64,000 nucleotides of DNA from Gammaproteobacteria bacterium (GCA_965215365.1 CBDCDS010000003.1:64001-128000); one strand, 5' to 3'; shown: positions 27,284 through 54,264, numbered from the stretch's first letter. The notes: generated from the sequence alone by a model not told the origin. A program made the numbers and translations.

Positions 27284-27303
27284 ACATGGCAATATCGGGT
27301 TGA

Positions 27304-32772: not shown

Positions 32773-32801
32773 TTGTCTATTATCACACGGGGGTGGATTG
32801 C

Positions 32802-33194
32802 ATGAGTTTTCAGCGTATCGGCGGCGTTAAAACGGGTAGTGGCGGGCAGCGATTGCCATTCTGTCAGGCGGTCAGGGCGGGAGATTATGTGTATGTCTCA
32901 GGCCAGGTAGCCATGGATGGGCGCGGTGAGATTATTGAGGGAGGGATCGTGCCGCAAGCCCACCAGACCATTGACAATGTCGTTGCCATCCTGAAGCAGG
33001 CCGAGTGTACTCTCGCAGACGTGGTAAAAGTCAATGTCTGGCTGGATGATACCAGGGATTTTCAAGCATTTAATCGCGTCTATGCCGACTATTTCGGTGA
33101 CCACCCGCCCGCCCGTTCCTGTGTACAATCCCGGCTCATGGTCGATGCAAAAGTAGAGCTGGATGTTATTGCCTACAAGCCCATGACAAAGTAG
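32802..33194 (+). CDS. RidA/YjgF-family enamine/imine deaminase
   Basis: VYVSGQV, VVKVNVWL, FNRVY, PARS, KVELD. Confidence 0.93.
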   Translation: MSFQRIGGVKTGSGGQRLPFCQAVRAGDYVYVSGQVAMDGRGEIIEGGIVPQAHQTIDNVVAILKQAECTLADVVKVNVWLDDTRDFQAFNRVYADYFGDHPPARSCVQSRLMVDAKVELDVIAYKPMTK

Positions 33195-33198
33195 CTCA

Positions 33199-34374
33199 AT
33201 GAGTTACTCGGTCTATACGTACCCCTGGAATTTTACTGCGGATAATTACCGGCGCCGGCTGGATGACATTCAAGCCCTGGGCTTGCAGGGCATCAATCTG
33301 GCTGCGAGTTACCATGCTGGCAAGTTTATTCACCCCGGCGGCGTGCGCGGTCGTGTTTATTTCCCCGAGGACGGTGTGCTTTATTTCAAGCCACGCGCGG
33401 ATTATGGGCGCATCCGACCGGTCGCCAGCAGCCTGCTCGAAGATATTGACATTTTCGCACTGCTAGGTGGCGTTGACGGCTTGCCACTGAATGCCTGGAC
33501 GGTTTTGTTGCACAACACCCGGCTGGGTCTGCAATACCCGCAGGCAACGGTCAGGAATGCTTTTGGGGACGCCTACGTCTATAGCTTGTGTCCGGCCCAT
33601 CCCGAGGTGCGCGCGTATGCCGTGGCCCTGTGCCAAGACCTTGCCGCGCATTATCCGGTCAATAGCCTGCTGCTCGAGACCCCGGGTTACATGGCCTATC
33701 ACCATGGCTACCACCATGAATTTGCACAGGTATCCCCCAACACCTGGCTGGAGGCGCAGCTGGCGTTGTGTTTTTGCGAGCACTGTCTGGTTGGGGCCGA
33801 CCGAGTCGGCATCGACGGCGCGCGCTTGCGGGGAATGATCGCAGCGGCTATTGACGACTACCTGGACGGCAGTCAGGTCAACGGCCGCAGCAGCGCGTTG
33901 ACCTGGTTGGAAAATGATGTCCCTGAGCAGGCCGAGCTCGAGGCCTTTCTGGCTTGGCGCTGTGAGGTGGTGACGTCCTTGATCAGGGAAATTCGCGCAC
34001 GAGTGCGCCCGGAAGTGAACGTCAAGGTTATCACGACCACACAACCGTCGCATGCTACCAGCGTGCTGGAGGGCCATGACCTGCCGGCGTTGCAAGCCGC
34101 CGCTGACGGCCTGGAGGCGCCGTTGTATCAGTCATCGCCGGTAGCCTGCAAAGCAGAGGCTGAACAGGTGCTGAAGCAGGTCGGCACAGCAGCCTCCCTC
34201 AGCGTTATACTGCGGCCAGGCTGGCCGGATATGCATAGTGAACAGCAGCTTGTCGAAACACTGGCCGGCGCTGAGGCGCTGGGACTTCGGGATATCAATT
34301 TTTATAACTACGACATGCTGCGACCGCGGTACTTGCAGTGGTTGGAAAATGCGCTGAAGGGTGCCTCTAATTAA
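33199..34374 (+). CDS. Uncharacterised protein, probably a glycoside-hydrolase-like TIM barrel
   Basis: YTYPW, AASYHAG, LCPAHPEVRAY, CFCEHC, FYNY; fold is inferred. Confidence 0.6.
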   Translation: MSYSVYTYPWNFTADNYRRRLDDIQALGLQGINLAASYHAGKFIHPGGVRGRVYFPEDGVLYFKPRADYGRIRPVASSLLEDIDIFALLGGVDGLPLNAWTVLLHNTRLGLQYPQATVRNAFGDAYVYSLCPAHPEVRAYAVALCQDLAAHYPVNSLLLETPGYMAYHHGYHHEFAQVSPNTWLEAQLALCFCEHCLVGADRVGIDGARLRGMIAAAIDDYLDGSQVNGRSSALTWLENDVPEQAELEAFLAWRCEVVTSLIREIRARVRPEVNVKVITTTQPSHATSVLEGHDLPALQAAADGLEAPLYQSSPVACKAEAEQVLKQVGTAASLSVILRPGWPDMHSEQQLVETLAGAEALGLRDINFYNYDMLRPRYLQWLENALKGASN

Positions 34375-34404
34375 TAGAGGTGACCATAAATCGGAGGCAA
34401 ACTG

Positions 34405-35193
34405 ATGGAGGGTTATCGTTTTGACGACAAAATCGTGCTGGTTACCGGTGCCGCCGGGGGGGTAGGCCAGGGCTTGTGCCGATATTTTTGCGAGCGTGGC
34501 GCCAGCGTACTGGCGCAGGATAGAAACCACGCGTTATTGCAGCAGTTGGTTGACGAGTTGGGGGAAAATTGTACCTCGGTAGCTGCCGACGTGACCGATC
34601 TGCCGGCATTAAGGAAGGCCGTCGCGGCTGCGACGGACCGGGTCGGCGCGGTTGACATTCTGTTGAACAATGCCGGGGGCGCCTCTGCGACCGCCCTTGC
34701 CAACCTGACTCCGGAAGCATGGCAGCATGACCTGAATCTCAACCTGACCGGCGCTTACCACTGTGTCGAGACGGTCAAAGAGGCCATGTTTGCGCGCGCT
34801 CGGGGAGTGATTATCAATATCGGCTCCGTCAATTCACTCTCCACCCTCGGGCACCCTGCCTACAGCGCCGCCAAGGCGGGCCTGAGCAGCTACACCAAAG
34901 CGCTCGCCGTCGAGTATGGCAGCAAGGGAATCCGGGCAAACCTGCTGAATCTGGGCACCGTCAAAACCCAGGCATGGAACGAGCGATTGGCCAGGAACCC
35001 TAGAATCTTTGAAGAATTGAAGAAATGGTATCCCTTGAGAAACTTCGCAGAGCCGCAGGATGTGGCTGCCGTTTGCGGCTTCCTGGCCTCGCCGGATGCG
35101 CGCTACATCACCGGCGCCATCATTCCTGTCGATGCCGGTCTGACTGCCGGCAATACCGTGCTGGCCGCGGCGCTGACGCTTGAGGAATTTTAG
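34405..35193 (+). CDS. Short-chain dehydrogenase/reductase
   Basis: TGAAGGVG, NNAG, YSAAK. Confidence 0.93.
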   Translation: MEGYRFDDKIVLVTGAAGGVGQGLCRYFCERGASVLAQDRNHALLQQLVDELGENCTSVAADVTDLPALRKAVAAATDRVGAVDILLNNAGGASATALANLTPEAWQHDLNLNLTGAYHCVETVKEAMFARARGVIINIGSVNSLSTLGHPAYSAAKAGLSSYTKALAVEYGSKGIRANLLNLGTVKTQAWNERLARNPRIFEELKKWYPLRNFAEPQDVAAVCGFLASPDARYITGAIIPVDAGLTAGNTVLAAALTLEEF

Positions 35194-35331
35194 CCCGCAG
35201 ATCTCACCAAGACCAGCGCGGGCGCATCAAGCGCAGTGGGTTAGGTGGAAAGAGCAGCAGTATTACCATAACTTATTGATAGCAATTATGTTTCACAAAG
35301 CAACAAGCGACTTGGTGGGATCTGCGGGCCA
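35191..35331. mobile_element. Internally deleted copy of the 243-bp palindromic MITE-like element
   Basis: tagcccgcagatctcacc ... ggtgggatctgcgggcca; central hairpin missing. Confidence 0.85.
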
Positions 35332-35332
35332 G

Positions 35333-36634
35333 GTGACGCTGACTCTGGAGCCGCTGCTGTCAGCCCCCTTGGAGGCAGGCACCAAAGGGCTTCCGTGCGC
35401 TGCCTCCGGGATAATGTTAGCGGAGGTCCCGGAACGTAACTGGAACCTGCTGCAAGGCTGCATCCCACTGCCTAGCGCCGTGCTCAAACAGCGGGTGCTG
35501 GAGCATAACGCCAAGTGGATGCAGGATTTTCAGGCACGCGCCGGCTTGTTGCTGGCGCCACATGGAAAAACCACCATGGCACCACAGTTGTTTGACTTAC
35601 AGCTGCGCCATGGCGCCTGGGGCATTACGGTGGCAACGGTGCAGCAGCTGCAGGTTTGTCGCCGGTTCGGTGTGCAACGCGTACTGATGGCGAATCAGTT
35701 GCTATCGAGCAACGATATTGCCTATGTGGCCGCGGAGCTGCGCCGGGATCAGGCGTTTGAATTTTATTGTCTGGTCGATTCTGTCGCCGGTGCAGAGCGC
35801 CTGCAACGGCATTTGGAATACGCCGGCGCCGCGCCGCCATTGCGTACATTGGTGGAGGTGGGCATGGTCGGTGGGCGCACGGGATGCCGCACGGCGCACG
35901 CGGCAATCCGGGTCGCGCAGCGTATCGCCACGCTGTCCCGGCTCTCCCTGCACGGGGTGGAGTGTTATGAGGGTATCATCGCCACCGGCGACCCGGCGCA
36001 AGACGAACAAGCGATTACGGCCTTGCTCGAACGCGCGCTGGATGTTTACCATGCCTGCAAAACGCAGCAGTTATTTGCCGATCAACACTGTGTGCTGCTC
36101 AGTGCCGGCGGCTCAGCCTGGTTTGATGTGGTGGCTGCTACATTTGGCCGTGTGCGCGACGAGACAGTCCGGGTCATTGTCCGTAGCGGTTGCTATCTGC
36201 CGCATGATTCATTGTTCTACCAGCGCCATTTCCAGGGCTTGCGGGCGCGGCGCCAGACACAGGCCGAGCCGGAAGATGCTCTCAAGCCGGCTCTGGAGGT
36301 CTGGGCCAGTGTGCAGTCGGTGCCGGAGCCGCAGCTGGCGGTGCTCAGTGTGGGCAAACGCGATGTGTCCCACGACCTGGAACTTCCCGTGGTGGAAAAG
36401 TGGTTCCGTCCCGGGGTGTCCGCAGCGCCGGCGCCGCTGACGGGGAGCGCAACCATCCGGGCGCTGCATGATCAGCACGCCTGTCTGCATTTTTCCGGGG
36501 GAACCGATCTGGCTGTAGGTGACATGCTCGCCCTGGGTGTGTCTCATCCCTGTACGACCTTCGATAAATGGCAGTTGCTGTGGCTGGTGGATGACGACTA
36601 TAACGTTACCGGCGGCATACGCACGTTCTTCTGA
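35333..36634 (+). CDS. PLP-dependent D-threonine aldolase / D-serine dehydratase family enzyme (amino-sugar acid dehydratase candidate)
   Basis: APHGKTTMAP, GGRTG, YEG, SAGGS, RSGCY, DQHA, SHPCTTFDKW; alternative ATG at 35288 lies in the MITE. Confidence 0.88.
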   Translation: MTLTLEPLLSAPLEAGTKGLPCAASGIMLAEVPERNWNLLQGCIPLPSAVLKQRVLEHNAKWMQDFQARAGLLLAPHGKTTMAPQLFDLQLRHGAWGITVATVQQLQVCRRFGVQRVLMANQLLSSNDIAYVAAELRRDQAFEFYCLVDSVAGAERLQRHLEYAGAAPPLRTLVEVGMVGGRTGCRTAHAAIRVAQRIATLSRLSLHGVECYEGIIATGDPAQDEQAITALLERALDVYHACKTQQLFADQHCVLLSAGGSAWFDVVAATFGRVRDETVRVIVRSGCYLPHDSLFYQRHFQGLRARRQTQAEPEDALKPALEVWASVQSVPEPQLAVLSVGKRDVSHDLELPVVEKWFRPGVSAAPAPLTGSATIRALHDQHACLHFSGGTDLAVGDMLALGVSHPCTTFDKWQLLWLVDDDYNVTGGIRTFF

Positions 36635-36643
36635 GTCACTGAC

Positions 36644-38146
36644 ATGTCTCAGTGCCATGATGTTACTATGCCGCAACGCTATGATCTGGTATTGCGTGGC
36701 GGCGAGCTCATAGACGGCAGTGGTGCCGCCCGCTCCCGTGCCGATGTCGCGGTGTGCGATGATCGAATCGCACATGTCGGCCGGCTGCACCGGCCGGATG
36801 CCGCGCGGATACTTGATATCAGCGGCAAGATTATCTGCCCGGGTTTTATTGATGTGCACACCCATGACGACCGGGCCTGTATCGACACCCCAGCCATGCG
36901 CCCCAAAACTAGCCAGGGGGTGACCACGGTGGTGGTTGGTAATTGCGGCCTCAGTCTGGCGCCGTTGATGGGCGCGGGCCGCCTGCCGGAGCCGTTGAAT
37001 CTGCTGGGCGAGGAGTCGGCATTTGAATTTGGCAATTTTCAAGACTATGTCGATGCCGTGAAACAAGCAAAACCAGCAGTCAACGTGCGGGCGCTGACAG
37101 GGCATTCGACCTTGCGCGTGGCGGTCATGCGCGAACTTGATAAAAAGGCCACCGCGCGCGAGCTTGACTCCATGTTGAAACTTCTTGATGACGCCCTAGA
37201 TGCCGGCGCCGCCGGCCTTAGCAGCGGCGTATTCTATCCGCCAGGCAGCGCCGCCGACCTAGAAGAGCTGGCAGCCCTGGCAGGACTCGTAGGGGAGAAA
37301 CAAGGAGTCTATGCGGTGCATCTGCGTGATGAATATGATCGGGTGCTCGAAGCTATGCAGGAGGCGGTGGACACCGCGCGCACGGGTCGGGTTCCCATGG
37401 TCATTTCCCATCACAAATGCGCTGGCGTGCAGAACTGGGGCAGAACGGCTGAGACCCTGGCGCTGCTTGATACGGCATCGCAGCAACAGGCCATCAACAT
37501 CGACTGCTACCCCTATACCGCCGGTTCCAGCGTGCTTGCTCCCGAACTGGTGGACGGCAGGATAAAAATTCTGGTCACCTGGTCGGCCGCCCAGCCTGAG
37601 CTGGGCGGGCGCTATCTTGATGATATTGCGGCACACTGGCGATGCAGCCAACAGCAGGCTGCCGAACGCCTGATGCCCGGTGGCGCCTGCTATTTTCAGA
37701 TGCACGAAGATGATGTGCGCAGAGTACTGCAACACCCGTCCTGCATGGTCGGCTCGGATGGTTTGCCGAACGATCCGCGCCCCCATCCCCGGTTGTGGGG
37801 AACGTTTCCCCGGGTGTTGGGACATTACGTGCGTGATGAAGGGTTGCTGCCGTTGGAGACGGCCATCCACAAGATGAGCGGTTTGTCGGCCTCGGTATTC
37901 AACATTTCGGCGCGGGGTCTGGTGCGGCCGGGTGCCTATGCTGACCTGGTAGTGTTTGATGCGGAAAAAATCCGTGACAACGCAACCTACGAAGCGCCAT
38001 GCGTAGCGGCCAGTGGAATCGACCATGTTCTGGTGAATGGCGAATTCGTACTGGACCAGGGAGAGGCAACCGGCCGCCGCGCCGGCCGATTTATCTCGCA
38101 TAAAGAAGGCGCGCATGCGGGTTTAGAGATTTCTGAAAGTTCTTGA
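36644..38146 (+). CDS. N-acyl-D-amino-acid deacylase family amidohydrolase
   Basis: PGFIDVHTHDD, GNCG, SHHK, GSDG, HPRLWGTFPRVLG. Confidence 0.93.
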   Translation: MSQCHDVTMPQRYDLVLRGGELIDGSGAARSRADVAVCDDRIAHVGRLHRPDAARILDISGKIICPGFIDVHTHDDRACIDTPAMRPKTSQGVTTVVVGNCGLSLAPLMGAGRLPEPLNLLGEESAFEFGNFQDYVDAVKQAKPAVNVRALTGHSTLRVAVMRELDKKATARELDSMLKLLDDALDAGAAGLSSGVFYPPGSAADLEELAALAGLVGEKQGVYAVHLRDEYDRVLEAMQEAVDTARTGRVPMVISHHKCAGVQNWGRTAETLALLDTASQQQAINIDCYPYTAGSSVLAPELVDGRIKILVTWSAAQPELGGRYLDDIAAHWRCSQQQAAERLMPGGACYFQMHEDDVRRVLQHPSCMVGSDGLPNDPRPHPRLWGTFPRVLGHYVRDEGLLPLETAIHKMSGLSASVFNISARGLVRPGAYADLVVFDAEKIRDNATYEAPCVAASGIDHVLVNGEFVLDQGEATGRRAGRFISHKEGAHAGLEISESS

Positions 38147-38156
38147 GGAGAATACT

Positions 38157-39782
38157 ATGATGATGAAAAAACTGTTCCAATGCTGCATCGGCCTGGTGTT
38201 ATTATCGGCGCTGTCGGAGGTGGCGCCGGCCGCGCAGCCTGAGCTTACAGTGATTCCACAACCACTGTCCTGGCAACCGACTCCGGCTGCGTTCACAATC
38301 GATGCCGGCACCACCGTAATTGCCACTGAAGACGCAGCGGCGTCGGCTTCCTGGCTTGCCCGACAGCTGCGTCAAGTCACCGGTTTTGAATTGCCCGTCC
38401 GGCGCGCCAAGGCTGCGGGTGATTCCGGCGCGCTCAGTTTGCGGCTGTTAGCGCCGCCGTCACAGCAGCCGGAGCTGGGCAAGGAGGGTTACCGCCTGCT
38501 GGTGGAAAATGGCCGGATAGAGATCTCCGCCAACGCGCCGGCAGGTCTGTTTTACGGTGTGCAGACACTGCTGCAGATGCTGCCTCCGGCCATTTACGCG
38601 CGGCAAGCCCGTTCCTTCAGCCCGGACGAACTTGCTATTGCCGGCATTGCGATAACGGACCGCCCCAGGTTCGGTTGGAGGGGGCTGATGATCGATGTCT
38701 CCCGTCACTTTTTCTCCAAGGAACAATTATTCAAAACCCTTGACGCCATGGCCATGCACAAACTCAATGTGCTCCATCTGCATCTGACAGATGACCCGGG
38801 TTGGCGTCTGGAAATTGATCAGTATCCGAAACTTGTCGATGTGGGTGCGGTCGGCGATATGTCCAATCCCGAGGGTCCGGCCCGGTGGTATTTTTCAAAA
38901 GATGAAATGCGCGAGATTATCGAGTATGCCAGACAGCGCCATATCAGGGTGGTGCCCGAGATCGATATGCCGGGTCACGCCTTGGCCGCGGCCAAGGCGT
39001 ATCCGCAATTTTTCGACGGCTACAAAACCTTCAATCCCGGCAACAAGGATACCTACGAATTTGTCAGAAACATTTTAACCGAAGTGATGGAGCTGTTTCC
39101 CTCCGGCTACCTCCACTTCGGCGGCGATGAGGTCAGAGACCATCGCTGGGCCGAACTGCCCGAGATTGCCGCCCTCATGCAGGAACATGGTTTTACCGAC
39201 CTGCATGAAGTAGAAGGGTATTTTGACCGTTTTGTCGCGGACTTCATCGTCGAGCAGGGCTACACGCCCATCGGTTGGGACGAAGTGGTTAATTTTGACG
39301 TCAATCCGGCGACGGTGGTGCAATGGTGGTTGCATCTTCGGCCCGAGACGCTGGACCTTGCTATCAAGAAGGGTCATCAGGTCATCATCTCGCCCACCAA
39401 CTACCTGTATTTCGACTATCCCAACTACGTGGGAGAGCCGGGCGCCCCCTGGGAAGGGAACGAAAACGGCCCCAATTCGGTGGAGCTGATTTACCAGTGG
39501 GAACCGGTCCCCGATACCTGGACGTCCGCGCAGGAAGCGCAAGTCCTGGGGCTGCAAGCCAACCTGTGGACGGAGTTGATCAAAACCAACGAGTATTATG
39601 AATACATGATCTTTCCCAGGTTATCTTCTTTGGCAGAAATAGCCTGGAGCCCAAAAGGGGACAAAGATCTGGAGGGTTTCCAGCGCCGCATCGAAATTCA
39701 GTGTCAACGCTATGAGGCAATGGGGCTCAACTACCGCAAGTACGAACAATGGCCCAGTGACTTCAGGTACATGAGACACTGA
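38157..39782 (+). CDS. GH20 beta-N-acetylhexosaminidase, secreted
   Basis: Signal peptide; DRPRFGWRGLMIDVSRHF, HLHLTDD, PEIDMPGH, HFGGDE. Confidence 0.95.
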   Translation: MMMKKLFQCCIGLVLLSALSEVAPAAQPELTVIPQPLSWQPTPAAFTIDAGTTVIATEDAAASASWLARQLRQVTGFELPVRRAKAAGDSGALSLRLLAPPSQQPELGKEGYRLLVENGRIEISANAPAGLFYGVQTLLQMLPPAIYARQARSFSPDELAIAGIAITDRPRFGWRGLMIDVSRHFFSKEQLFKTLDAMAMHKLNVLHLHLTDDPGWRLEIDQYPKLVDVGAVGDMSNPEGPARWYFSKDEMREIIEYARQRHIRVVPEIDMPGHALAAAKAYPQFFDGYKTFNPGNKDTYEFVRNILTEVMELFPSGYLHFGGDEVRDHRWAELPEIAALMQEHGFTDLHEVEGYFDRFVADFIVEQGYTPIGWDEVVNFDVNPATVVQWWLHLRPETLDLAIKKGHQVIISPTNYLYFDYPNYVGEPGAPWEGNENGPNSVELIYQWEPVPDTWTSAQEAQVLGLQANLWTELIKTNEYYEYMIFPRLSSLAEIAWSPKGDKDLEGFQRRIEIQCQRYEAMGLNYRKYEQWPSDFRYMRH

Positions 39783-39816
39783 TAGGCGCCTGCCTGATAA
39801 CGCGGCCACACATTAC

Positions 39817-40443
39817 TCAAGCAGTCAGGCTGTCGCGGCAGGCGGCGACTAGCGTGGCCGCCGCCGCGCTGAGCTCAGCTAAGGATTTACCTGGCTTGTA
39901 GAGTGCCGAGCCGATACCAAATCCGTTGGTGCCGTGGCGCACATACTCCTTCATGTTGGCGCTGTTGATACCGCCCACCGCACACAAGGGAAACTGCGCC
40001 GGCAGCACGGCGCGCACAGCCTTAACGGCAGCCGGCGGCAGCAGCTCGGCCGGGAACAGTTTTGCTGCATCAGCGCCCGTTGCGAGGGCCGTCAGGAGCT
40101 CCGATGGCGTCAGGCTGCCCGGCATGGAGACCATGTTCAAGCGTTTTGTTGCGGCAATGACTGCCGGATTGGTATTGGGAGAGACTACCAGCTGCGCGCC
40201 GGCCTGATGCACGGCGCTGACCTCAGTGGCACTCAGTACCGTGCCGGCGCCAATCAGCGCCTTGTTGGCATAGTTTTTTGCCAACAGCTGAATTGAGGCG
40301 CAGGCGTCAGGGGAGTTCAACGGCACTTCCATCATTACTATGCCCACTTCCAGCAGCGTCTCAGCGACAGGTAGCGCCTCAGCCGGCGTGATGCCGCGCA
40401 AGATGGCAATTAACGGCAGAGTTTTCATATAATCATTGAGCAT
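39817..40443 (-). CDS. dgoA: 2-dehydro-3-deoxy-6-phosphogalactonate aldolase
   Basis: LPLIAILRGITP, EVPLNSP, GAGTV, KLFPAE, GIGSALYKPG. Confidence 0.92.
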   Translation of the reverse strand: MLNDYMKTLPLIAILRGITPAEALPVAETLLEVGIVMMEVPLNSPDACASIQLLAKNYANKALIGAGTVLSATEVSAVHQAGAQLVVSPNTNPAVIAATKRLNMVSMPGSLTPSELLTALATGADAAKLFPAELLPPAAVKAVRAVLPAQFPLCAVGGINSANMKEYVRHGTNGFGIGSALYKPGKSLAELSAAAATLVAACRDSLTA

Positions 40444-40493
40444 TTTTTATAACCTGCTTACATGTGGTGACCTGAGCGGCGCGCCAGTTTCCA

Positions 40494-41224
40494 TAGCCCG
40501 CAGATCTCACCGAGTGATGCGAAGATCGCGCCGGATTGGTTCTGCCTGCGGGTGCCTGCGCCCGAAAGCATAGCGGTAGCTATGGTTGAGGAAGCACGTG
40601 CCCGCAGGCAGAACCAAGACCAGCGAGGGCGCATCAAGCGCAGTGTGTCAGGTGGAAAGAGTAGCAGTATTACCATCACTTATTGAGAGCAATTATGTTT
40701 CACAAGGCAACAAGCGACTGGGTGAGATCTGCGGGTTAGCCCGCAGATCTCACCGAGTGATGCGAAGATCGCGCCGGATTGGTTCTGCCTGCGGGTGCCT
40801 GCGCCCGAAAGCATAGCGGTAGCTATGGTTGAACAAGCACGTGCCCGCAGGCAGAACCAAGACCAGCGAGGGCGCATCAAGCGCAGTGTGTCAGGTGGAA
40901 AGAGTAGCAGTATGATCATCACTTATTGAGAACCATCATGTTTCATAAGACGACAAGCGACTGGGTGAGATCTGCGGGTTAGCCCGCAGATCTCACCGAG
41001 TGATGCGAAGATCGCGCCGGATTGGTTCTGCCTGCGGGTGCCTGCGCCCGAAAGCATAGCGGTAGCTATGGTTGAGGAAGCACGTGCCCGCAGGCAGAAC
41101 CAAGACCAGCGAGGGCGCATCAAGCGCAGTGGGTTATGCGGAAAGAGCAGCAGTATGATCATCACTTATTGAGAACCATCATGTTTCATAAGACGACAAG
41201 CGACTGGGTGAGATATGCGGGTTA
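40494..41224. mobile_element. Three head-to-tail copies of a 243-bp palindromic MITE-like element
   Basis: Units start at 40494, 40737 and 40980; 18-bp TIRs TAGCCCGCAGATCTCACC / GGTGAGATCTGCGGGTTA share TA at the junctions; internal perfect 17-bp inverted repeat. Confidence 0.93.
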
Positions 41225-42110
41225 GCCCTTGTATCGACGCCTGCTCCGACGTGACGGACCAGGTGGGAATGTCAAATAAGGCAAACGCCTGCTCATACTG
41301 GCGCAACAGCGACCGGCTGCCAACCAGTGTGACGCCCTGCTTAACCGGGCAAAGCTCTAAGCCGGCGCCGATTTCCGCGCCGATTAACAAGCCGGACAGG
41401 TAGCTGGCATGGGTGCCGCAAAGTGATTCTTGCGTCAGCAGGCGCGACCGGATGGAGAACACATGGTGGGCAAATCCCCCCGGTTTTTTGCTGACGCGAA
41501 TCCCTTCTTCAAAGGCATCCGCAGCAAAATCCTCGTGCCGGATTATTGCTCGCACGGAGGCCGCGCGTCTGATTGAGGCAAACAGTTCGCCGGTCAGGAA
41601 CGTGGCAAAGTCGCGGATCGTAGCGCCGTCGTAACGCACCCACTTGCTGTGGGTGCCGGGCAAACACACTATGTCGCCACCGGCCGTTGCTGCCGTTCCC
41701 AGAACCTGGGTTTCCTCGCCGCGCATCACGTCCGTAAACGCCAGACTACCACAGCTCAGGCCGGGGACAATGAACGTCGGGTGGTCCTGCATATCGGGAA
41801 CCCGCACCAGATGTTTACCCAGATCGTCAACCGTAGCCGGACACTTCAGGTAGTTGGTCTCAACCCAGCCCTCGCGGCTGCCGACCATGCCGGACATAAA
41901 CACCGGCAGGCCCGGCGCATGTTCAAGCCAGCTACCGCAGGCATCGTATAAAACACTGGCAAAGCCACCTTGCTGTACCTTGAATATACCGTGGTCGTTG
42001 TCCGTTTGCGCGCGCACCGCTCCATCCGCAGCGAGCAGGTACGCCCGGAAGTGGCTTGAGCCCCAATCTACCGCCACCATGGCTGCATCCCCCGACATAA
42101 TTGCTGCCAT
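41166..42110 (-). CDS. dgoK: 2-dehydro-3-deoxygalactonokinase
   Basis: VDWGSSHFRA, SGMVGSREGW, DVMRGEETQ, LPGTHSKW, TGELF, YLSGLLIGAE; last ~18 aa come from the MITE. Confidence 0.93.
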   Translation of the reverse strand: MAAIMSGDAAMVAVDWGSSHFRAYLLAADGAVRAQTDNDHGIFKVQQGGFASVLYDACGSWLEHAPGLPVFMSGMVGSREGWVETNYLKCPATVDDLGKHLVRVPDMQDHPTFIVPGLSCGSLAFTDVMRGEETQVLGTAATAGGDIVCLPGTHSKWVRYDGATIRDFATFLTGELFASIRRAASVRAIIRHEDFAADAFEEGIRVSKKPGGFAHHVFSIRSRLLTQESLCGTHASYLSGLLIGAEIGAGLELCPVKQGVTLVGSRSLLRQYEQAFALFDIPTWSVTSEQASIQGLTRISHPVACRLMKHDGSQ

Positions 42111-42448
42111 TATTCCTCCCGGTGTAACAGCAATGGCAGTAGCGCTGGCGCTTGCCCGGCGCGCACTGCAACCACCAGCGGCGCCCAAGCGCCGGCGTTG
42201 GCGGTGATACGCAAGCGAATCAGGGTCGGCAGGCGCGCGGCATCGCCCCATTCATCATGCCAGGCAGGTTCGGTATTCGGGGCATTGTGGCCGAAATAAT
42301 CCAGCGCAATCCCCTCTATATCTTCCAGCAGGGTGACTTTTTCCGCATCATCAAAGATGTCTTCCTCAAGCATGTCCTGGTCTCTGGTTAACGGCGTGTA
42401 GTCGAGCAACAAGGTCTCCCGTCCGCTTCTGAGTCTCAGAAAATACAC
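42110..42448 (-). pseudogene. gspJ: C-terminal fragment of type II secretion pseudopilin J
   Basis: LLEDIEGIALDYFG...WHDEW...LPTLIRL...WAPLVV; no prepilin N-terminus upstream. Confidence 0.65.
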
Positions 42449-42822
42449 GCCGCCGCCGGCTCAGCCTCAACGCGCCCTTGAACCTGCGGCGGCGCCTGGG
42501 TTGACAGCCGACTGCAAGCCCCCGCCGACAGGAGCAACAACCCCACCGCACCTGCTGTCACAAAGCTCTGAGTAGATATAATCCGCAAACTGAATGACCC
42601 AATGCCATACATTACAAAACCATTTCCCACGGCCGGCACTCCGCTTGCGTTGCATGAAAAGAATGTAAAGAATTGTAATAATTATAACACAATTACAGAC
42701 AGCCCCCCCCTAATATCAACAAGAAAGTTAAGCTGTTTTATTTTTCAAATAACGTAGCAGGACTACAAACAGCGGCAACAACCTGTTGTGCTATTTCGAC
42801 GGCACTGGCGGCGCGCGACACT

Positions 42823-42837
42823 TGTAGTTTATTTACA
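42823..42837. promoter_or_regulatory. HexR/RpiR-like palindrome
   Basis: tgtagtttatttaca in an AT-rich divergent intergenic region; neighbouring TGTAAT/ATTACA half-sites. Confidence 0.55.
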
Positions 42838-42928
42838 TTGATTTTTAAGTGCAATAATAAATTACATTTTTGGACAGCGCTCTGCTATGCTTGCTGCCGT
42901 GCAGGGTCAAGCTCTGGGGGATTGCGCC

Positions 42929-45157
42929 ATGTTCAGATACATATTCGGCTGTGTGGGCCGTTGCTTGGGGGCGCGCCTGCCGGCGCCTGTGCGATGGGTT
43001 CTGCCACTACTGTTTCTGGTGGCGCCGCCAGCCTTTGCACAAACCGAACGCGCGCCGTCTTTTCCCCCTGGCACCGAAATCGGTGAGCTGGTTTTCAAAA
43101 AAGGTGTGCCCACAGGCGACATTGTCCTGCCGTCAGCCAGGGGGGGTGATGTTGATCCTGCAATCAATAACGGTGAACTCAGCGATTACAGCTTCGATCC
43201 GGCAAAATTACCGCCCGGCCTGGACTTTAACCGATTTACCCGCATCCTCAGCGGCACACCGAAATATACCATGCAGAAGCGAACCTATCATTTGTGGGTG
43301 CACGACGATGACGAGAACTGGTCGAGGTCTGATGCAGATTCCCTGCATTTCAGTATTGAAGTCATGGATGACAAGCAACAAACCGCCGTAAACAGCGTTG
43401 AACAGGCCGCTAAAGAAGAGGTCGCAAGTGCGCCGGCCAGGTTTGCCGCCGATTGACGATTACATCTACTATCAGCAGCAGGACTTGAAGAGGTCGCAAG
43501 TGCGCCGGCCAGGTTTGCCGCCTCCTTCGAATCCGAATTCCAATGGTTCAATAAGGATAAAAGACCCGGACTGTCAGGGGCAACTACATGGAACAGTACC
43601 GTTTGGCGCGGAGAACGCATACAGAAGCACATCCTGGTGACGCGCGCATCATCACGCGACAGGATTTCCATCAGCGCCGGTGATTTTGAAAGCCCGGCGG
43701 GCGTTATCCCGGCTGAGGCGTTGACGTTTCGCTATCCGCAATTTGTCAAGGGCGATATTGAGGCGCGTGATTGTGAAGGCTACCCGCAGCGCGCCGAAGC
43801 CGTATTTCTGTCCGACGCGTTGTTTCCACAACAGCCGCGACGGCAGGCGGGTTCCTATCCGGTCATGATCTGGGCGTCAATCGATATACCGGCGGACTCC
43901 CGACCCGGCGAGTATGTCGGCAATATTACCGTGAGTGCAACGTCAGGAGAGCAGCAAACCCTGCAGGTGGCATTGCGTGTGACACTATGGGCTATGCCCT
44001 CTCAACGACCGTTCCATTTGGACCTCTGGCAATTTCCCGTATCCGTGCTGGACCGTTACAACGATGCCAACGCAAGAAAGATAAAAGTCTGGTCTGAGCA
44101 ACACTATGCATTGTTGGAACCCACCTACCGCTATCTCGCAGAATTAGGCCAGCGCACTGTTACCACCTATATCAAGGAAGGCGCGTTTGCCGCGCCGTCA
44201 ATGATCCGCTGGATTGCCTTAGAGGGCGGCACGCGCTGGGATTATGACTACGCTGTGTTTGATGCACATGTCGAGCGTCTTGCCGAATGGGGTATTGATG
44301 ACCAAATCAGCGCGTTCTCCCCGATAGGGTGGAACAAGGATGAGCTGCCCTTTTGGGATGCAGCCACCGGCGCCAGTAAAGTATTCAAGTACAGTATAGG
44401 CTCAAAAGAATATAACGCCTTGTGGAACCACTTTCTCACCGATTTCAGAAAACATCTGGTTGAAAAAGGCTGGTTTGAAAAAACCGTGCTGTATATGGAT
44501 GAGGTGCCCAAAGAAGAAATGGAGTCGGTCATCGGTCTGATTCGCTTCAATGACAAGGATTGGAAAATCGGTCTGACCTACGGCCATGCCCCGGGAGTTA
44601 ACGTCATCGCCAGTCTGTATGACGTATCCGGATACTACGAAAGCGAAATTGAAGTACAGACGTACCCGGGGCAGGTCACCACGTTTTACACCAGTTGCTC
44701 GCTCCAACGCCCGAACAACTACGTGGCCGCCGATGCCAATCCGGCGGACATGACGGCCATGCCCTAGTATGCCATGTACCGGGGACACGACGGTTATTTA
44801 CGCTGGGCCTTCGACAACTGGAAGTCTTATGAGCCGCTGGACTTGCAGGAGGGCTCGTTTACAGCAGGCGATTTTTCCTTCGTTTACCGAAGCAGCAACG
44901 ACAAGGATATGACCATGATACCCAGCGTCAGGTCGGAACTGCTGCGGGACGGCATTGAGGATTATGAAAAGGCGCTGACACTGTACAAGACGATGCTGAA
45001 ATGCAAAAAAGAGGATTTACTGAGCGGTCTGGAGGAGACGATCAACACTTTTTCAACCGAGCGGTTGCTGGCCGGACAGGCGAGTGAGCTGATCATCCAG
45101 GCGCGTAGGCAACTGCATGAACTATCACAATCGACAACGCCTGACCTGTGTCAATAG
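42929..45157 (+). pseudogene. Secreted Ig-like (He_PIG) plus GH123/DUF4091 beta-N-acetylgalactosaminidase-like gene with two in-frame stops
   Basis: Three ORF pieces in one frame; LPPGLDF...LSGTP; WRGER, HLDLWQ, YMDE, TFYTSC, GYLRWAF, LRDGIEDYEK; TGA at 43454 and TAG at 44765 (the paralog has TGG). Confidence 0.85.
43415..43522 (+). repeat. Perfect 36-bp direct repeat flanking a 36-bp unrelated insert
   Basis: gaagaggtcgcaagtgcgccggccaggtttgccgcc at 43415-43450 and 43487-43522. Confidence 0.95.
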
Positions 45158-45162
45158 CCTCA

Positions 45163-46311
45163 TCAGGGCCACAGACTGTGCGTCTGCAATGCTTCAAGCA
45201 ACCGCGCGACCGTCCATATCTCAATACCGTCCTCGGTTCGGAAGGTACGAGCACCGTCATAAACCAGCACGCGGCGCGCCAGTCCCGGCAGTTTTTCGAT
45301 TGCGCGTAATCCTTTCAGCAAACCGGTGTTATAGCGACTTGCCGCCTTCGTCTCAATAGCGAGATATTCGTTGTCACGGGTCAGCAGAAAATCGACTTCT
45401 GTCCGGGATTCGAGCGGCGCCCAATAATAAATGTCATCAAACACCGGCTGTTCCGCCGCGTGCGCGCGCAGGAGGCCTAGTATCCAACCCTCGAACAAAG
45501 CGCCTCGTTCCTCCATTGATACGGGCCCGAACTGGCGTTTCACGGCTCGCACCAAACCCGGGTCCACCCAGTAGAGTTTCGGGCGCCGCCGTTCCCGCAC
45601 CCGCAGTTTTGCTTCATAAGCGGGCAACCTCCAGGTGAGTAGTGTGTCTTCCAACACATCCAGGTAGCCGCTAACGGTCGTACGCGCCACGCCGGCGTCC
45701 CGGGCAATGCCGGTTACATTCAGGGTCTGTCCATGCAACAGCGCGGCAACCGGCAGGAAACGCACGAAACCGGGCAGGTTGCGAACAGCCGCCTGCGCAC
45801 GAATCTCTTCCCGCAGGTACAGTTGTGTATAGCTTTCCAGCACTTCACGGCGGTCCTCGGCCGCCCATACCAGGGGAATGCTGCCGTGCCTGAGCACATC
45901 GTCCAGCTTGAAATCGGCGCCGAGTTCCTGTGGAACCAGCGGATACATGGCTTTGCGGCTTGCGCGCCCGGCCAGCAGGTTCGTCCCCGCGGTCTTGAGT
46001 TTGCGGGCGCTGGAACCCAGTAGCGCAAAACGCAGCCCGCGCCCCTCAATCAGCCGGTGCACTTCATTCAGGAGAGAGGGTATGCGCTGCACCTCGTCGA
46101 TAACAATCCACTCGTCACTTGCGACATTGGTGGTCAGCTGCCGGAACAGCGATGGGGCTGCCAGCAGATCATGGAACAACGCTTCATCCAGCAAGTCGAT
46201 GTGCAGAGCGCCGGGCAGGATGTCTCGCGCCCATGAGCTTTTGCCAACGCCGCGCACACCGAACAGAAAAAAGCTGCGCGCAGGTAACCGAGTGATCCTT
46301 TGGTATAGCAT
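45163..46311 (-). CDS. AAA+ ATPase with DUF4143-type C-terminus
   Basis: GVRGVGKS, IDEVQR, LGSS, KLYWVDPG, EVDF...IETK. Confidence 0.9.
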   Translation of the reverse strand: MLYQRITRLPARSFFLFGVRGVGKSSWARDILPGALHIDLLDEALFHDLLAAPSLFRQLTTNVASDEWIVIDEVQRIPSLLNEVHRLIEGRGLRFALLGSSARKLKTAGTNLLAGRASRKAMYPLVPQELGADFKLDDVLRHGSIPLVWAAEDRREVLESYTQLYLREEIRAQAAVRNLPGFVRFLPVAALLHGQTLNVTGIARDAGVARTTVSGYLDVLEDTLLTWRLPAYEAKLRVRERRRPKLYWVDPGLVRAVKRQFGPVSMEERGALFEGWILGLLRAHAAEQPVFDDIYYWAPLESRTEVDFLLTRDNEYLAIETKAASRYNTGLLKGLRAIEKLPGLARRVLVYDGARTFRTEDGIEIWTVARLLEALQTHSLWP

Positions 46312-46543
46312 AAAGTCAAAAATAGCCGAAAAAAGACGATATAGCAAGCAATATTTGAAAAACTATGGATACAGTGGGTGCTCCCAAGACACCGACAGTC
46401 CTTGGCCGTTGTGTCGAGGTTGAGTTTCATCAAAATGTAGCAATATTACTTTCTGAAAAACATTTTGAAAACTTATTGCATTTTTATGGCGGCTGGTTTA
46501 GCATCGGCATAGAAGATTTGATTTAGCGTTGGGGGACGTGGTT

Positions 46544-48973
46544 ATGAGCAAATTTTTGACGAGGGGTGATCTGCATCATCGGCGAGTCCGGGGGCGGATA
46601 TCATCTGCGTTATTATTGTTAAGCTGTTGTCCGAACCTGATACTCAAAAATCTAGGCGTGAGCTTGCCGTGGGTTTTTCTGCTGCTGTTCCTTGTTGTCC
46701 CGCAAGCTTTTGCGCAAACCATCACACTCACGGCAACGGCCGGGCAGGGCCGGGTGGAGTTATCCTGGACACGAATAACCGGGGCAGGAGGGTACGATCT
46801 GTATTTTTGCGAGGGTGCCACCTGTACCGTCCCCACCTCCTCATTCCGCTACCCCCGGTTTGTCGCCGGTCATACCGAGGCGCGCAGTTGCAGCGTGGAT
46901 TACCAGCAAGAGAATACAACCGCTTACCTGTCCGATGCGCTGTTTGCCAAGCCGCCCCGGGCATTGCCGCCGCGGTGGCCCGAGCTGGTGTGGATGGCGG
47001 TGGATATCCCTGCCGACACTCCCGCCGGAGACTACTCCGGTACGGTGACTGTCAGCGCAGTCTCGGCAGAGACTACCACTGCCATGACCACGCTTGAGGT
47101 CTCGATTCAGGTTGTCCCGTGGACTCTGCCCGATGCAGAAAACCGGCAGTTCCACTTGGACTTGTGGCAGTTCCCCGTGTCCGTGCTGGATCGGTATAAC
47201 GATGCCAATCCGGATGACCTCATAGAGCTCTGGTCTGAGGCGCATTACGCCTTGCTGGAGCCCACCTACCGTTATCTGGCCGGCCTCGGCCAGCGCACCG
47301 TGACCACCTACATCAAAGAAGGCGCGCTGGGCGCGCCGTCCATGATTCAGTGGACGCTCAAGAGAGACGGCAGTTGGGAATACGATTATTCAGTATTTGA
47401 TACCTATGTGGAACGTCTTGCCGGCTGGGGGATCGATCGGCAGATCAGTGCATTCTCTCCGTTAGGCTGGAACAAAGGTGAGGTCCCCTATTGGGACGAG
47501 GCCAGTCAAAGCAAGATAACCTTCAGCGCCGAGGTAGGGTCCGCTGACTGGAATGAGCGCTGGGAGCATTTTCTGACGGATTTCCGGGCGCACCTGTTGG
47601 AAGAAGGATGGCTCGATAGAACGGTCATCTATTTGGACGAATCTTCCGCGGCAGAGGTGCAGGCCGTGCTCGATCTGGTAGGGAGTATTGATGATAACTG
47701 GAAAGTCGGGTCGGCTTATATCGGTTCCGGGCAGGACGGCCCCGGCGCAAGCATTCTCAGCAAGCTGTATGACGCTTCGGGTTCATTGGAGTACCGGTCT
47801 GCCATCGGCAGAACTTATGTGGACACCGGGCTGGTAACGGGCGAAACCTACCGCTATGCAGTGGATGCTGCCGCAGGTCCCGGCAACGCCAGCGCTCTTT
47901 CTTCCCCCGTTACGCTGGTGGCGCAGGTCCCCGCCGTGCCGGGACCACCCACCGACTTGACGGCGCTGAACATGTCGGGCGGAATTCAGTTGAACTGGAC
48001 CGAGCCCGCAGCAACCGGCAGCAGCGCTCTGACTGGCCATAACATTTATCGCTGCATCGATGTTGGCACTTCCTGTGCGCCGGCCTGGTTTGACAGTGTG
48101 ATCTCCGGCGCCACCTACACCGACTCCGATGTAACGGCGAGTACGAGCTATCGTTATACGGTGGAAGCCTGTAACGCCACCGGGGGCGGGAACCATTCCG
48201 GCGAGATAGCGGCGACGAGTGAGGTTACGGTCAATGTGCAGCCGAGTGACTCCCGTGATACAGCCGGAACCGGCGCAACGCCGCAAGCTCAGTCAGCGCC
48301 GACTGTGCCGACCGGTGTGACGGCGTTTGCCGCAAGCGCCACGGCAATTCAACTCGGCTGGGAGGGGAGCGCCGCCGCCGGCTTTGACGTGTACCGTTGC
48401 GTCGGGTCGCAGACCTGCACGCCTGACATCTATCTGGGCTGGGCTTATGCGGATAACCATGTCCCCGACCCGGCGCGGATAAGCACGTTCTACACAAGTT
48501 GCGCGCAACCGCGCCCGAACAGCTTCGTCGCTGCCAACGCAGATCCGACAGACCTGTCCGCGCTGCCCTGGCATGCGCTGCAAAGACGCCGGGACGGCTA
48601 CCTGCGTTGGGCGTTTGACAACTGGAGAGTTCCTGAGCCGCTGGACCTGCGTGAAGGGGCCTTTACCGCCGGGGATTACTCACTGGTTTACCGGAGCAGC
48701 AATGACAGGAGCATGACAGTCGTGCCCAGTATTCGTGCGGAGCTGTTGCGCGCCGGCATTGAAGACTTTGAGAAGGTGCAGGTATTACGTAACAGCTTGT
48801 CGGACTGCGCGGCGGACGAACTCGCCGGCAGGTGGCTGGAGCGGCTGGAGATGACGGTGGATACCTTCTCTGCCGCGCCGCTGGTGGCCGGCCGGGCCGC
48901 TGACCTCATCCGTCAGGCGCATAACCGGCTTGATGAAATCTCCTTGCAACTGACGCCGGACCGGTGTCGGTAG
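46544..48973 (+). CDS. Secreted GH123/DUF4091-like hydrolase interleaved with FN3 segments
   Basis: Signal ending AFA-Q; paralog of 42929-45157; FN3 motifs (LSW, YxC-xn-C, TYxDT, YRY) at the N-terminus and at about 47795-48475. Confidence 0.82.
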   Translation: MSKFLTRGDLHHRRVRGRISSALLLLSCCPNLILKNLGVSLPWVFLLLFLVVPQAFAQTITLTATAGQGRVELSWTRITGAGGYDLYFCEGATCTVPTSSFRYPRFVAGHTEARSCSVDYQQENTTAYLSDALFAKPPRALPPRWPELVWMAVDIPADTPAGDYSGTVTVSAVSAETTTAMTTLEVSIQVVPWTLPDAENRQFHLDLWQFPVSVLDRYNDANPDDLIELWSEAHYALLEPTYRYLAGLGQRTVTTYIKEGALGAPSMIQWTLKRDGSWEYDYSVFDTYVERLAGWGIDRQISAFSPLGWNKGEVPYWDEASQSKITFSAEVGSADWNERWEHFLTDFRAHLLEEGWLDRTVIYLDESSAAEVQAVLDLVGSIDDNWKVGSAYIGSGQDGPGASILSKLYDASGSLEYRSAIGRTYVDTGLVTGETYRYAVDAAAGPGNASALSSPVTLVAQVPAVPGPPTDLTALNMSGGIQLNWTEPAATGSSALTGHNIYRCIDVGTSCAPAWFDSVISGATYTDSDVTASTSYRYTVEACNATGGGNHSGEIAATSEVTVNVQPSDSRDTAGTGATPQAQSAPTVPTGVTAFAASATAIQLGWEGSAAAGFDVYRCVGSQTCTPDIYLGWAYADNHVPDPARISTFYTSCAQPRPNSFVAANADPTDLSALPWHALQRRRDGYLRWAFDNWRVPEPLDLREGAFTAGDYSLVYRSSNDRSMTVVPSIRAELLRAGIEDFEKVQVLRNSLSDCAADELAGRWLERLEMTVDTFSAAPLVAGRAADLIRQAHNRLDEISLQLTPDRCR

Positions 48974-53349: not shown

Positions 53350-54264
53350 GTGAAACCTCCCGTCAACAAGGCCTTAACAGTCAATAACATCACCGACTTT
53401 ATTTCCATCGTCAGGCAGTCCTACCCGGAGTTAAGCAAATCCGGCCGCAAGATCGCCAATTTGCTGATGGAAAAACCCGAGCAGTTTATCAGAGCCAGTG
53501 TCAAGGAGGTGTCTGTTCTCACCGGCGTCAGCGATGCCACCGTAGTCCGCTTCGGCAGGAATCTGGGCTGTAACGGGTTCAAAGACCTGAAGCTGTTACT
53601 GGCCCAACATCTGGCCGTGGAACAGGCCCACAAAGATGCCGCGTCGGGTCAGACCCGGCCGCCGGCCGGTACGTTTGAAGAGCAGATTCATCATTCCGCG
53701 CTGGAGGCGTTAAATCGTGCCAGCCTTGATATCAAGCCGGATATCATTGACAAGGCTGCTATTGCGATTTCACAGTCCAGACGGGTATTCGTCTATGGCA
53801 TCGGCGGCAGTTCCGGGATACTGGCAGCCGAGATACATAACAGGCTGTTTCGTCTGAACGTTATGACGACCGCATTTACCGATGATTATCTGCAAAGAAT
53901 GTCCGCATCAACAGTAACCTCTGAGGACCTGATACTGGTTATTTCTGCCACCGGGCGCCCTCGTCCGCTGCTGGAAAGCGTGGAAATGGCACAGCACTAC
54001 GGGGCAAAATGCGTGGCCATTACGGACAAGAACAGCGCCTTGGCGGACCTGGCAGATAGCTGTATTCACGTGGAACTTTCGCAATCGGGCGTGCTGCATA
54101 ACCAGCCTAACCCCATGCGTTTTGCACAGCTGTTTGCTATTGATTGCCTCTCTCATCGGGTCGCTCAGCTGCTTGGCAAGACCGCGGAGGAAACATTGCA
54201 ACGAGTGCGGGCCAGCATCGCTTCCATTCAGGGCATCGCGCCGCAACAACCTATCGGCGATTGA
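53350..54264 (+). CDS. RpiR/MurR/HexR-family transcriptional regulator
   Basis: GVSDATVVRFGR..GFKDLK HTH; SIS domain YGIGGSS, ISATG. Confidence 0.93.
   Translation: MKPPVNKALTVNNITDFISIVRQSYPELSKSGRKIANLLMEKPEQFIRASVKEVSVLTGVSDATVVRFGRNLGCNGFKDLKLLLAQHLAVEQAHKDAASGQTRPPAGTFEEQIHHSALEALNRASLDIKPDIIDKAAIAISQSRRVFVYGIGGSSGILAAEIHNRLFRLNVMTTAFTDDYLQRMSASTVTSEDLILVISATGRPRPLLESVEMAQHYGAKCVAITDKNSALADLADSCIHVELSQSGVLHNQPNPMRFAQLFAIDCLSHRVAQLLGKTAEETLQRVRASIASIQGIAPQQPIGD

Follow-up and report, generated by a model that had tools for sequence, protein, structure and literature searches.

Organization of the gene cluster

The gene cluster described here lies in a 64,000-nucleotide stretch of DNA from a Gammaproteobacteria bacterium (GCA_965215365.1, CBDCDS010000003.1:64001-128000), referred to as the window; positions are counted from its first letter, except those given as C3 coordinates. 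On balance, and with modest confidence, the predicted functions suggest that the cluster specifies a version of the ong-type pathway for amino-sugar acids that is galacto-configured and oxidises the sugar, with N-acetylgalactosamine (GalNAc) as the probable substrate. Genes were called from a listing of open reading frames (ORFs) and from Pfam and NCBIfam scans, the ORF-by-ORF scan covering the window beyond base 27300.

The core of the cluster is a run of six plus-strand genes (32793-39782), in which the successive junctions are spacers of 4 nt and 30 nt, an overlap, and spacers of 9 nt and 10 nt. The first gene encodes a RidA-family enamine/imine deaminase, the counterpart of OngD (32793..33194, with the in-frame ATG at 32802 as the likely start), matched by PF01042 (106.8 bits) and TIGR00004 (111.8 bits, cut-off 106.25). 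It is followed by a gene for an uncharacterised protein of 391 aa, here called Unk391 (33199..34374), by a classical short-chain dehydrogenase/reductase (SDR; 34405..35193; PF13561, 189.5 bits), by a fold-type III pyridoxal phosphate (PLP) enzyme of the OngC/D-serine-dehydratase kind (ORF 35180..36634; PF14031, D-ser_dehydrat, and PF01168, Ala_racemase_N), by a subtype-V amidohydrolase of the Amidohydro_3 family and the D-aminoacylase/OngB kind (36644..38146), and by a GH20 beta-N-acetylhexosaminidase in the position of OngA (38157..39782; PF00728, 365 bits, and PF02838), which reached up to 302 bits against PDB hexosaminidases. This operon converges on two minus-strand genes, dgoA and dgoK. 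The former (39817..40443) encodes a 2-dehydro-3-deoxy-6-phosphogalactonate aldolase (NF006600, 254.5 bits, cut-off 207) that fails the eda model TIGR01182 (140 bits, cut-off 156), and the latter (41166..42251) a 2-keto-3-deoxygalactonate kinase (PF05035, 291 bits, cut-off 25, covering profile positions 1-281 of 281).

Beyond dgoK, the plus strand carries genes for two GH123 proteins. In the frame at 42887..45157, which has a signal peptide and matches to He_PIG, the GH123 N-terminal domain and GH123_cat, a TGA at 43454 and a TAG at 44765 interrupt a single reading frame and split the domains over three ORFs, so that this copy is either a pseudogene or mis-sequenced. The gene at 46529..48973 is intact and encodes a beta-N-acetylgalactosaminidase-like protein with a signal peptide and an fn3 insert (PF13320, 175.7 bits); it scored 200 bits against 5l7v and 128 bits against the beta-N-acetylgalactosaminidase 5fqe. 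Further plus-strand genes encode a TonB-dependent receptor of the TonB-Xanth-Caul type (48992..53227; TIGR01782, 525 bits, cut-off 310, over residues 550-1411) and an RpiR/MurR-family regulator in the position of OngR (53350..54264; PF01418 and PF01380), which scored 165 bits on the HexR subfamily model, under its cut-off of 296. Signal-peptide-like N-termini were found in GH20, both GH123 proteins and the TonB receptor, and are absent from RidA, Unk391, the SDR, the PLP enzyme and the amidohydrolase. A first-pass annotation of the same DNA had proposed an operon of ridA, an unknown gene, SDR, PLP enzyme, deacylase and GH20 genes converging on dgoK-dgoA, which these scans confirmed and of which the first five genes recur in the same order in other genomes (see below). 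It had also placed two GH123-like genes, a TonB receptor and an RpiR regulator beside it; the receptor and regulator are present, although both lie beyond position 48973, at which the annotated region ended, and only one of the GH123 genes is intact.

Relation to known pathways

In the ong cluster of Pseudoalteromonas prydzensis, N-acetylglucosaminate (GlcNAc1A) is first deacetylated by OngB and then deaminated by OngC to 2-keto-3-deoxygluconate (KDG), which KdgK phosphorylates; RidA is genetically required, and OngC also deaminates D-Ser and D-Thr (PMC9537276). The window has in common with the ong cluster a TonB receptor, an RpiR regulator, a periplasmic GH20, RidA, a subtype-V amidohydrolase and a fold-III PLP deaminase (PMC9537276, PMC12017989), together with the same logic, in which deacetylation and deamination are followed by phosphorylation of a 2-keto-3-deoxy acid. 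The differences are that ong has the PfkB-type KdgK, whereas the window has DgoK and DgoA and no PfkB gene; that ong has the SSS carrier OngIT and an AA10 lytic polysaccharide monooxygenase (LPMO), whereas there is no SSS gene in the window cluster and no LPMO gene in the genome; and that the window carries GH123 genes and adds a cytoplasmic SDR and a GH-like barrel, which implies that the cell itself would oxidise the sugar. The chemistry put forward in the first-pass annotation, a deacylase acting before a PLP dehydratase assisted by RidA, is upheld by the ong homologues, for which deacetylation and ammonia elimination have been shown on gluco substrates (PMC9537276); by analogy, the window enzymes may perform the same reactions.

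The core cluster thus belongs to the already known ong kind of pathway, and what is plausibly new is its galacto, sugar-oxidising form; the gluco-series precedent lowers the novelty of the pathway kind. The first-pass annotation had known of no genetic description of this galacto-configured pathway, and this holds for the form though not for the kind: full-text literature searches, which reached neither subscription journals nor the supplementary data of the two ong studies, returned no galacto version, no galactosaminate catabolism and no GalNAc 1-dehydrogenase gene.

Parts of the arrangement are shared with other pathways. The De Ley-Doudoroff pathway for galactose and galactonate has the same DgoK/DgoA lower part, but there 2-keto-3-deoxygalactonate (KDGal) arises by dehydration of galactonate, whereas in the window it would arise by PLP-dependent deamination of an amino-sugar acid. 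The phosphorylative GalNAc route via tagatose 6-phosphate, reportedly described by Leyn in 2012, is to our knowledge the only one established for bacterial use of GalNAc. That route (AgaK/AgaA/AgaS) and the one proposed here would share their substrate, and the kind of glycan-foraging context is alike; in the proposed route, however, no kinase acts first, no AgaS- or NagA-type gene was found, and the route would end in pyruvate and glyceraldehyde 3-phosphate via 2-keto-3-deoxy-6-phosphogalactonate. The catabolism of N-acyl-D-amino acids has in common with the window the closest solved sequences, the catalytic residues and the need for RidA, but the window differs from it in a polar pocket and in a conserved operon with sugar enzymes.

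Predicted functions of the operon enzymes

Among solved structures, the matches of the amidohydrolase included the D-aminoacylase of A. faecalis (1m7j, 500 bits), an unnamed amidohydrolase (9g5m, 499 bits) and PpOngB (9kb1, 436 bits), whose structure and specificity residues have been described (PMC12017989). With PpOngB ranking seventh among the matches, the pocket was mapped by hand through the alignment to the A. faecalis enzyme and the equivalences given in that paper, and the register was checked on residues named there (Phe191, Met254, Leu298, Met346 and the metal ligands). The Cys/His/His metal site and the catalytic Asp are retained (C101, H226, H256 and D372), as are the anchors of the acetamido and carboxylate groups (L120, Y198, K258, Y289, S295, L374 and R383), and all these residues are invariant in 13 of 13 block relatives. 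At the specificity positions the window enzyme has F197, A260, G294, S295, S296, D304 and Q352, the placement of D304 being approximate, since it falls in a loop with indels. Three of the seven positions named for PpOngB (Ala193, Ala256, Ser290, Ser291, Ser292, Gln298 and Gly348) are thus kept, while in place of Ala193, Ser290, Gln298 and Gly348 the window enzyme has F, G, D and Q. The A. faecalis enzyme is described as having F, M, G, S, T, L and M at the same positions; from its hydrophobic pocket (Phe191, Met254, Leu298, Met346 and Thr), the window enzyme keeps the first as F197 and has A260, D304, Q352 and S296 at the others. Judged from these alignments, the pocket is polar and of a third type beside those of PpOngB and D-aminoacylase. 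The enzyme is proposed to be an N-acetylgalactosaminate deacetylase.

The PLP enzyme aligned to 3gwq, annotated as 'D-serine deaminase', with 332 bits from residue 63 onwards and with its HGKT lysine motif in register; its likeness to OngC was drawn from family membership and this alignment rather than from the sequence of OngC itself. It is proposed to act as a galactosaminate ammonia-lyase yielding KDGal. Since, from the known reaction, the elimination would involve C2 and C3, the configuration at C4 should be unchanged from the sugar to the keto-acid.

Unk391 matched no Pfam or NCBIfam family above threshold, the nearest being GHL10 (21.8 bits, cut-off 27.9). Its relatives are named 'hypothetical protein', in the ESM Atlas as well, where the nearest named clusters are GHL10-like. 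An AlphaFold2 model of high confidence (pLDDT 92, pTM 0.92) predicts a GH-like (beta/alpha)8 barrel, whose best fold match was Cwp19 (Z 26.6, root-mean-square deviation 2.9, 288 residues aligned), followed by the GH153 domain of PgaB (Z 24), a GH family alpha-L-fucosidase and GH42 enzymes (Z about 21); all 50 fold matches listed were glycosidases or GH-like proteins (Z 17-27). In an alignment of relatives the invariant residues were C131, E160, H169, H172, H173, E174, C191xC193xxC196 and E291, a set that holds an HxxHHE loop as well as C131 with the CxCxxC motif. The spacing of Cys, Glu and CxCxxC recalls what we take to be the structural zinc site of GH42 enzymes. Because of a near-obligate pairing with the SDR (see below) and because the operon has no other lactonase, our first guess is that Unk391 is the lactonase partner of the SDR, a cytoplasmic glycosidase being the main alternative. 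The SDR itself reached 337.5 bits on NF005474 (cut-off 361) and 195 bits on the glucose 1-dehydrogenase subfamily (cut-off 215), and it is proposed to be an NAD+-dependent N-acetylgalactosamine 1-dehydrogenase.

Genome content and the outlet for the keto-acid

Family searches were made across the whole genome (2.73 Mb, 97.6% complete). A single DGOK gene was found, that of the window, and the window dgoA is the only member of the KDPG/KDPGal-aldolase family (PF01081), so that no Eda is present. The five PfkB hits correspond to a ribokinase-like protein, HldE, two nucleoside-kinase-like proteins and HMP-P kinase, with no KdgK among them. Therefore, KDG would have no outlet in this genome, whereas KDGal has one. 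No genome-wide match was obtained for LPMO_10 (PF03067), for the NagA model, for AgaS or for GalK. Enolase-type DgoD is likewise absent genome-wide, the sole MR_MLE protein being muconate-cycloisomerase-like (97.8 bits on the galactonate dehydratase model, cut-off 311).

The first-pass annotation had noted that the window holds no aga/nag kinase, deacetylase or deaminase and no dgoD. The same searches placed no nagA, agaS, nagB, PfkB or MR_MLE gene in the window, in agreement with it, but counterparts of both sets occur elsewhere in the genome. A nag-like set lies at C3:1400082-1405428. Its genes encode a kinase of the BadF/G type, a deacetylase of the PIG-L family that is non-orthologous to NagA (itself found nowhere in the genome), NagB (298 bits, cut-off 237) and a pair of NagP-like MFS carriers. 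By its gene content, this set can account for the use of N-acetylglucosamine (GlcNAc), by a phosphorylative route. In addition, 2.4-10.7 kb past the window end (C3:130410-138693), a GH2 gene comes first and five pathway genes follow from 4.8 kb, encoding a GntR/FCD regulator, an SGL-lactonase homologue (61% identical to the SGL lactonase of the block-bearing locus L002), an SSS carrier, an SDR and an IlvD/EDD-type dehydratase (954 bits on NF009560); the upper set of SDR, lactonase and dehydratase spans 5.5-10.7 kb. GH53 and GH2 genes also lie in the window, downstream of the operon, and with no galK present, galactan and galactose seem to be used through the De Ley-Doudoroff route, with the IlvD-type dehydratase replacing DgoD.

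Conservation of the block in other genomes

A scan for the amidohydrolase, with one genome per species, gave 80 loci, which were then searched by tblastn with the window proteins. The order RidA-Unk391-SDR-PLP-amidohydrolase was kept in five of them, from three Gammaproteobacteria metagenome-assembled genomes and from the cultured Alteromonadaceae bacterium XY-R5 and Sphingomonas flavalba ZLT-5. Both dgoK and dgoA lay within 10 kb in four of these five loci, against one of the 75 block-less loci, which are mostly from Burkholderiales (about 50% identity) and have PLP, RpiR and amidohydrolase genes plus RidA without Unk391 or SDR. In L002, dgoK overlaps the end of the amidohydrolase gene and dgoK-dgoA directly follow the block; in L003 and L005 an in-operon SSS carrier follows the block and precedes dgoK-dgoA, with GH88 and DUF4861 genes upstream in L003; and in the Sphingomonas locus L006 dgoK-dgoA lie within 5 kb of the block. 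Downstream of its block, L004 carries the pair of BadF/G kinase and PIG-L genes that the window genome has in its nag-like set. The co-occurrence with dgoKA that the first-pass annotation had asked about is thus seen as adjacency in L002, L003, L005 and L006, as well as in a variant from Solibacteraceae (Acidobacteriota; L107) with the order Unk391-SDR-DgoK-DgoA-RpiR-amidohydrolase, although it fails to discriminate when DGOK is counted genome-wide (see below).

The loci without the block (L007-L081, Burkholderiales and others) carry RidA, a Dpp-type ABC transporter, a fold-III PLP enzyme, RpiR and the amidohydrolase, with no SDR or Unk391, and their amidohydrolases have an F-A-G-T-D-Q pocket, which we count as the same as that of the window enzyme. 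The substrate of these clusters may be something other than GlcNAc1A. A PfkB kinase is present at one Burkholderiales-type locus (L010).

An alignment of Unk391 relatives was used for a further scan, which gave 534 stretches in about 185,000 species genomes; the best 80 of the 534, including L140 from an unpublished genome, were analysed. An SDR homologue lay within 10 kb in 76 of these 80 loci, mostly directly downstream, and the other neighbours were the amidohydrolase (28), RpiR (27), RidA (23), the PLP enzyme (21), DgoA (6) and DgoK (5). ORF clustering with Pfam scans of representatives added GFO/IDH/MocA oxidoreductases, found in 37 loci, ABC transporters, and non-orthologous Amidohydro_1 deacetylase-like and D-ser_dehydrat proteins. 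Among the 49 loci of at least 20 kb, at least 30 have a deacetylase-like protein and at least 16 a fold-III PLP enzyme, and 16 have neither; since ORF picking missed genes, the neighbour counts are floors.

Altogether, the five-gene block was found in the same order in 13 other genomes of Gamma- and Alphaproteobacteria, including five Asticcacaulis as well as Rhodanobacter and Niveispirillum, so it is not a chance arrangement. The 14 block amidohydrolases formed one group (SH-aLRT 97) in a quick maximum-likelihood tree of 53 of 108 sequences, in which Burkholderiales were thinned to every fourth. True ong clusters were sought in a sample of 400 genomes of the class: a homologue was found in 7 other genomes and in neither of the two same-family genomes, with PLP, RpiR, amidohydrolase and RidA genes together at L189 and L191. 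These sampled loci had no Unk391, no co-located SDR homologue and no dgoKA, apart from a weak SDR match (28%) 2.7 kb away in L190.

Proposed pathway and alternative explanations

In the proposed pathway, the secreted-type GH123 and GH20 enzymes would release beta-linked GalNAc from glycans taken up via the TonB receptor, and GalNAc would pass to the cytoplasm by a carrier outside the genes assigned to the cluster. There, the NAD-type SDR would oxidise GalNAc at C1 to the lactone, and Unk391 would open this lactone or supply the free sugar, which is the weakest step of the scheme. The OngB-like amidohydrolase would then take off acetate, the OngC-like PLP enzyme would eliminate ammonia while RidA clears the enamine/imine intermediate, giving KDGal, and DgoK and DgoA would convert KDGal to pyruvate and glyceraldehyde 3-phosphate. 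That the sugar has the galacto configuration we infer from the pairing with dgoKA, from the best matches of the GH123 proteins, which are solved beta-N-acetylgalactosaminidases, and from the missing gluco-route enzymes.

Mucins, glycolipids and chondroitin all have GalNAc as one of their major sugars. If the proposal is true, predictions of GalNAc use would change for genomes without aga genes, a function would be given to the widespread and unnamed Unk391 family, and the ong logic, found with acids derived from chitin, would also apply to sugars oxidised by the cell. A more far-reaching version, in which the non-phosphorylative GalNAc route is complete in several phyla, Unk391 represents a new GH-derived lactonase family and the Unk391-SDR pair is a general entry module for N-acetylhexosamine oxidation, seems rather doubtful.

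Several observations weigh against the galacto-configured proposal. Given the set of genes past the window end and the lack of GalK, a De Ley-Doudoroff route for galactose, dependent on these very DgoK and DgoA enzymes, is probable in this genome, so that dgoKA would be shared and need not be fed by the operon; in L002, too, a set of the same type adjoins the block. The link to dgoKA is itself partial, since it was seen beside the block in four of the 13 other genomes and not in the fetched flanks of the remaining nine (the five Asticcacaulis, L004, L102, L103 and L157), some of whose contigs are short. Across whole genomes, DGOK was present in 14 of 14 block genomes, in 10 of 14 with Unk391, SDR and amidohydrolase and in 11 of 22 other Unk391 genomes (50 genomes, including the unpublished G019). 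Of 50 ong-like comparison genomes without the block, however, 42 had it as well; as a co-occurrence test, genome-wide presence was thus rejected because it does not discriminate, and adjacency alone was used. The first-pass annotation had expected homologous clusters to be linked to dgoKA or GH123, and this stands in part for dgoKA, whereas a GH123 homologue was found in none of the 165 other loci of the amidohydrolase and Unk391 scans, which confines that linkage to the window. The pocket residues were considered as a galacto marker and rejected, because the block-less Burkholderiales group has the same pocket type, and enzyme specificities are not readable from sequence. An inner-membrane carrier was not found in the window's cluster, and the SSS carrier of the relatives has a sole genome match, 26-27% identical and outside the window. 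Lastly, no operator common to the cluster was found upstream of ridA with shared 9-mers, GTAGYAATATT or HexR-like TGTAAT..ATTACA palindromes. The conversion of GalNAc to KDGal for DgoK and DgoA, as first suggested, is therefore favoured by the absence of KdgK, Eda and LPMO and by the proximity of dgoKA to the block, and set back by the galactose feed, the GH123 result and the DGOK counts.

A conventional ong-type cluster, acting on N-acetylglucosaminate from oxidised chitin or on GlcNAc oxidised by the cell, with dgoKA serving galactose catabolism alone, would explain why the core families, the regulator and the receptor types coincide with those described for ong, why GH20 occupies the position of OngA, and why dgoKA has a De Ley-Doudoroff feed of its own nearby. 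Against it, LPMO_10, a KdgK-like kinase and Eda are all absent from a nearly complete genome, dgoKA lies inside the operon in L002, L003 and L005, the four OngB-specific pocket residues named in the structural paper are replaced, and GlcNAc already has a phosphorylative nag set, so that we consider this explanation distinctly improbable. The catabolism of N-acyl-D-amino acids such as N-acetyl-D-serine or -threonine, by a D-aminoacylase, a D-serine dehydratase and RidA with the sugar genes as mere neighbours, appears even less probable. It would agree with the best solved relatives of the two enzymes, with the Dpp-type ABC transporters that adjoin the Burkholderiales relatives, and with the activity of OngC on D-Ser and D-Thr mentioned above (PMC9537276). 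It accounts poorly, however, for an operon in which an SDR, a GH-like barrel and GH20 are closely packed with these enzymes, and to which relatives add SSS or MFS carriers and dgoKA, and for a pocket in which three of the four hydrophobic residues described for D-aminoacylase (M254, L298 and M346) are A, D and Q and the Thr is Ser.

The same pathway logic could also start from a disaccharide or another hexosamine, with Unk391 acting in the cytoplasm as a glycosidase, instead of a lactonase, and releasing the reducing amino sugar on which the SDR would act. The uniformly glycosidase-like fold matches of Unk391 and the likeness of its Cys/Glu/CxCxxC spacing to the GH42 site speak for this, as do the oligosaccharide-type ABC transporters and GFO/IDH/MocA oxidoreductases that are frequent at related loci. 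However, periplasmic GH20 and GH123 would already yield the monosaccharide, no other candidate lactonase is encoded in the operon, and genes for the dehydrogenase and the lactonase of oxidative sugar routes are usually adjacent; overall, this entry seems unlikely, though less so than the two preceding explanations.

Regulatory motifs, repeats and other features

The operator searches gave no evidence for or against a single regulon. The motif GTAGYAATATT had three matches, a number that five of 100 shuffled sequences also reached. Four HexR-type near-palindromes (TGTAAT..ATTACA with one or two mismatches) cluster at 42674-42866, in the divergent spacer between dgoK and GH123; over the whole window, the hits per spacer class were similar to those in shuffled sequence, and the clustering alone stands out.

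The TonB receptor ORF is 1411 aa long, and the approximately 550 N-terminal residues before the Plug domain (570-674) contain two fn3 domains and a proline-rich stretch; either this extension is unusual or the ORF merges two genes. A minus-strand gene found in the Pfam scan (45163..46347), which separates the two GH123 genes, encodes an AAA_14/DUF4143 ATPase and looks like an interloper.

A dispersed repeat enters the cluster at two places. A partial copy (35193..35328; blastn hits at C3:99193-99328) extends from the SDR stop codon to the true start of the PLP gene, and the first 60 or so codons of the PLP ORF, which is over-long at its 5' end, correspond to it. In the dgoK-dgoA spacer, three tandem copies of a 243-bp unit (40494..41228) were identified by TRF (period 243, 3.0 copies, 96% matches) and blastn, and the last 20 or so codons of dgoK, with its stop, come from this repeat. 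With blastn (E <= 1e-5), the 243-bp family gave over 240 hits across the 2.7-Mb genome; its copies frequently form tandem pairs or are split into modules of about 60 bp and about 185 bp, and the unit bears a long GC-rich hairpin.

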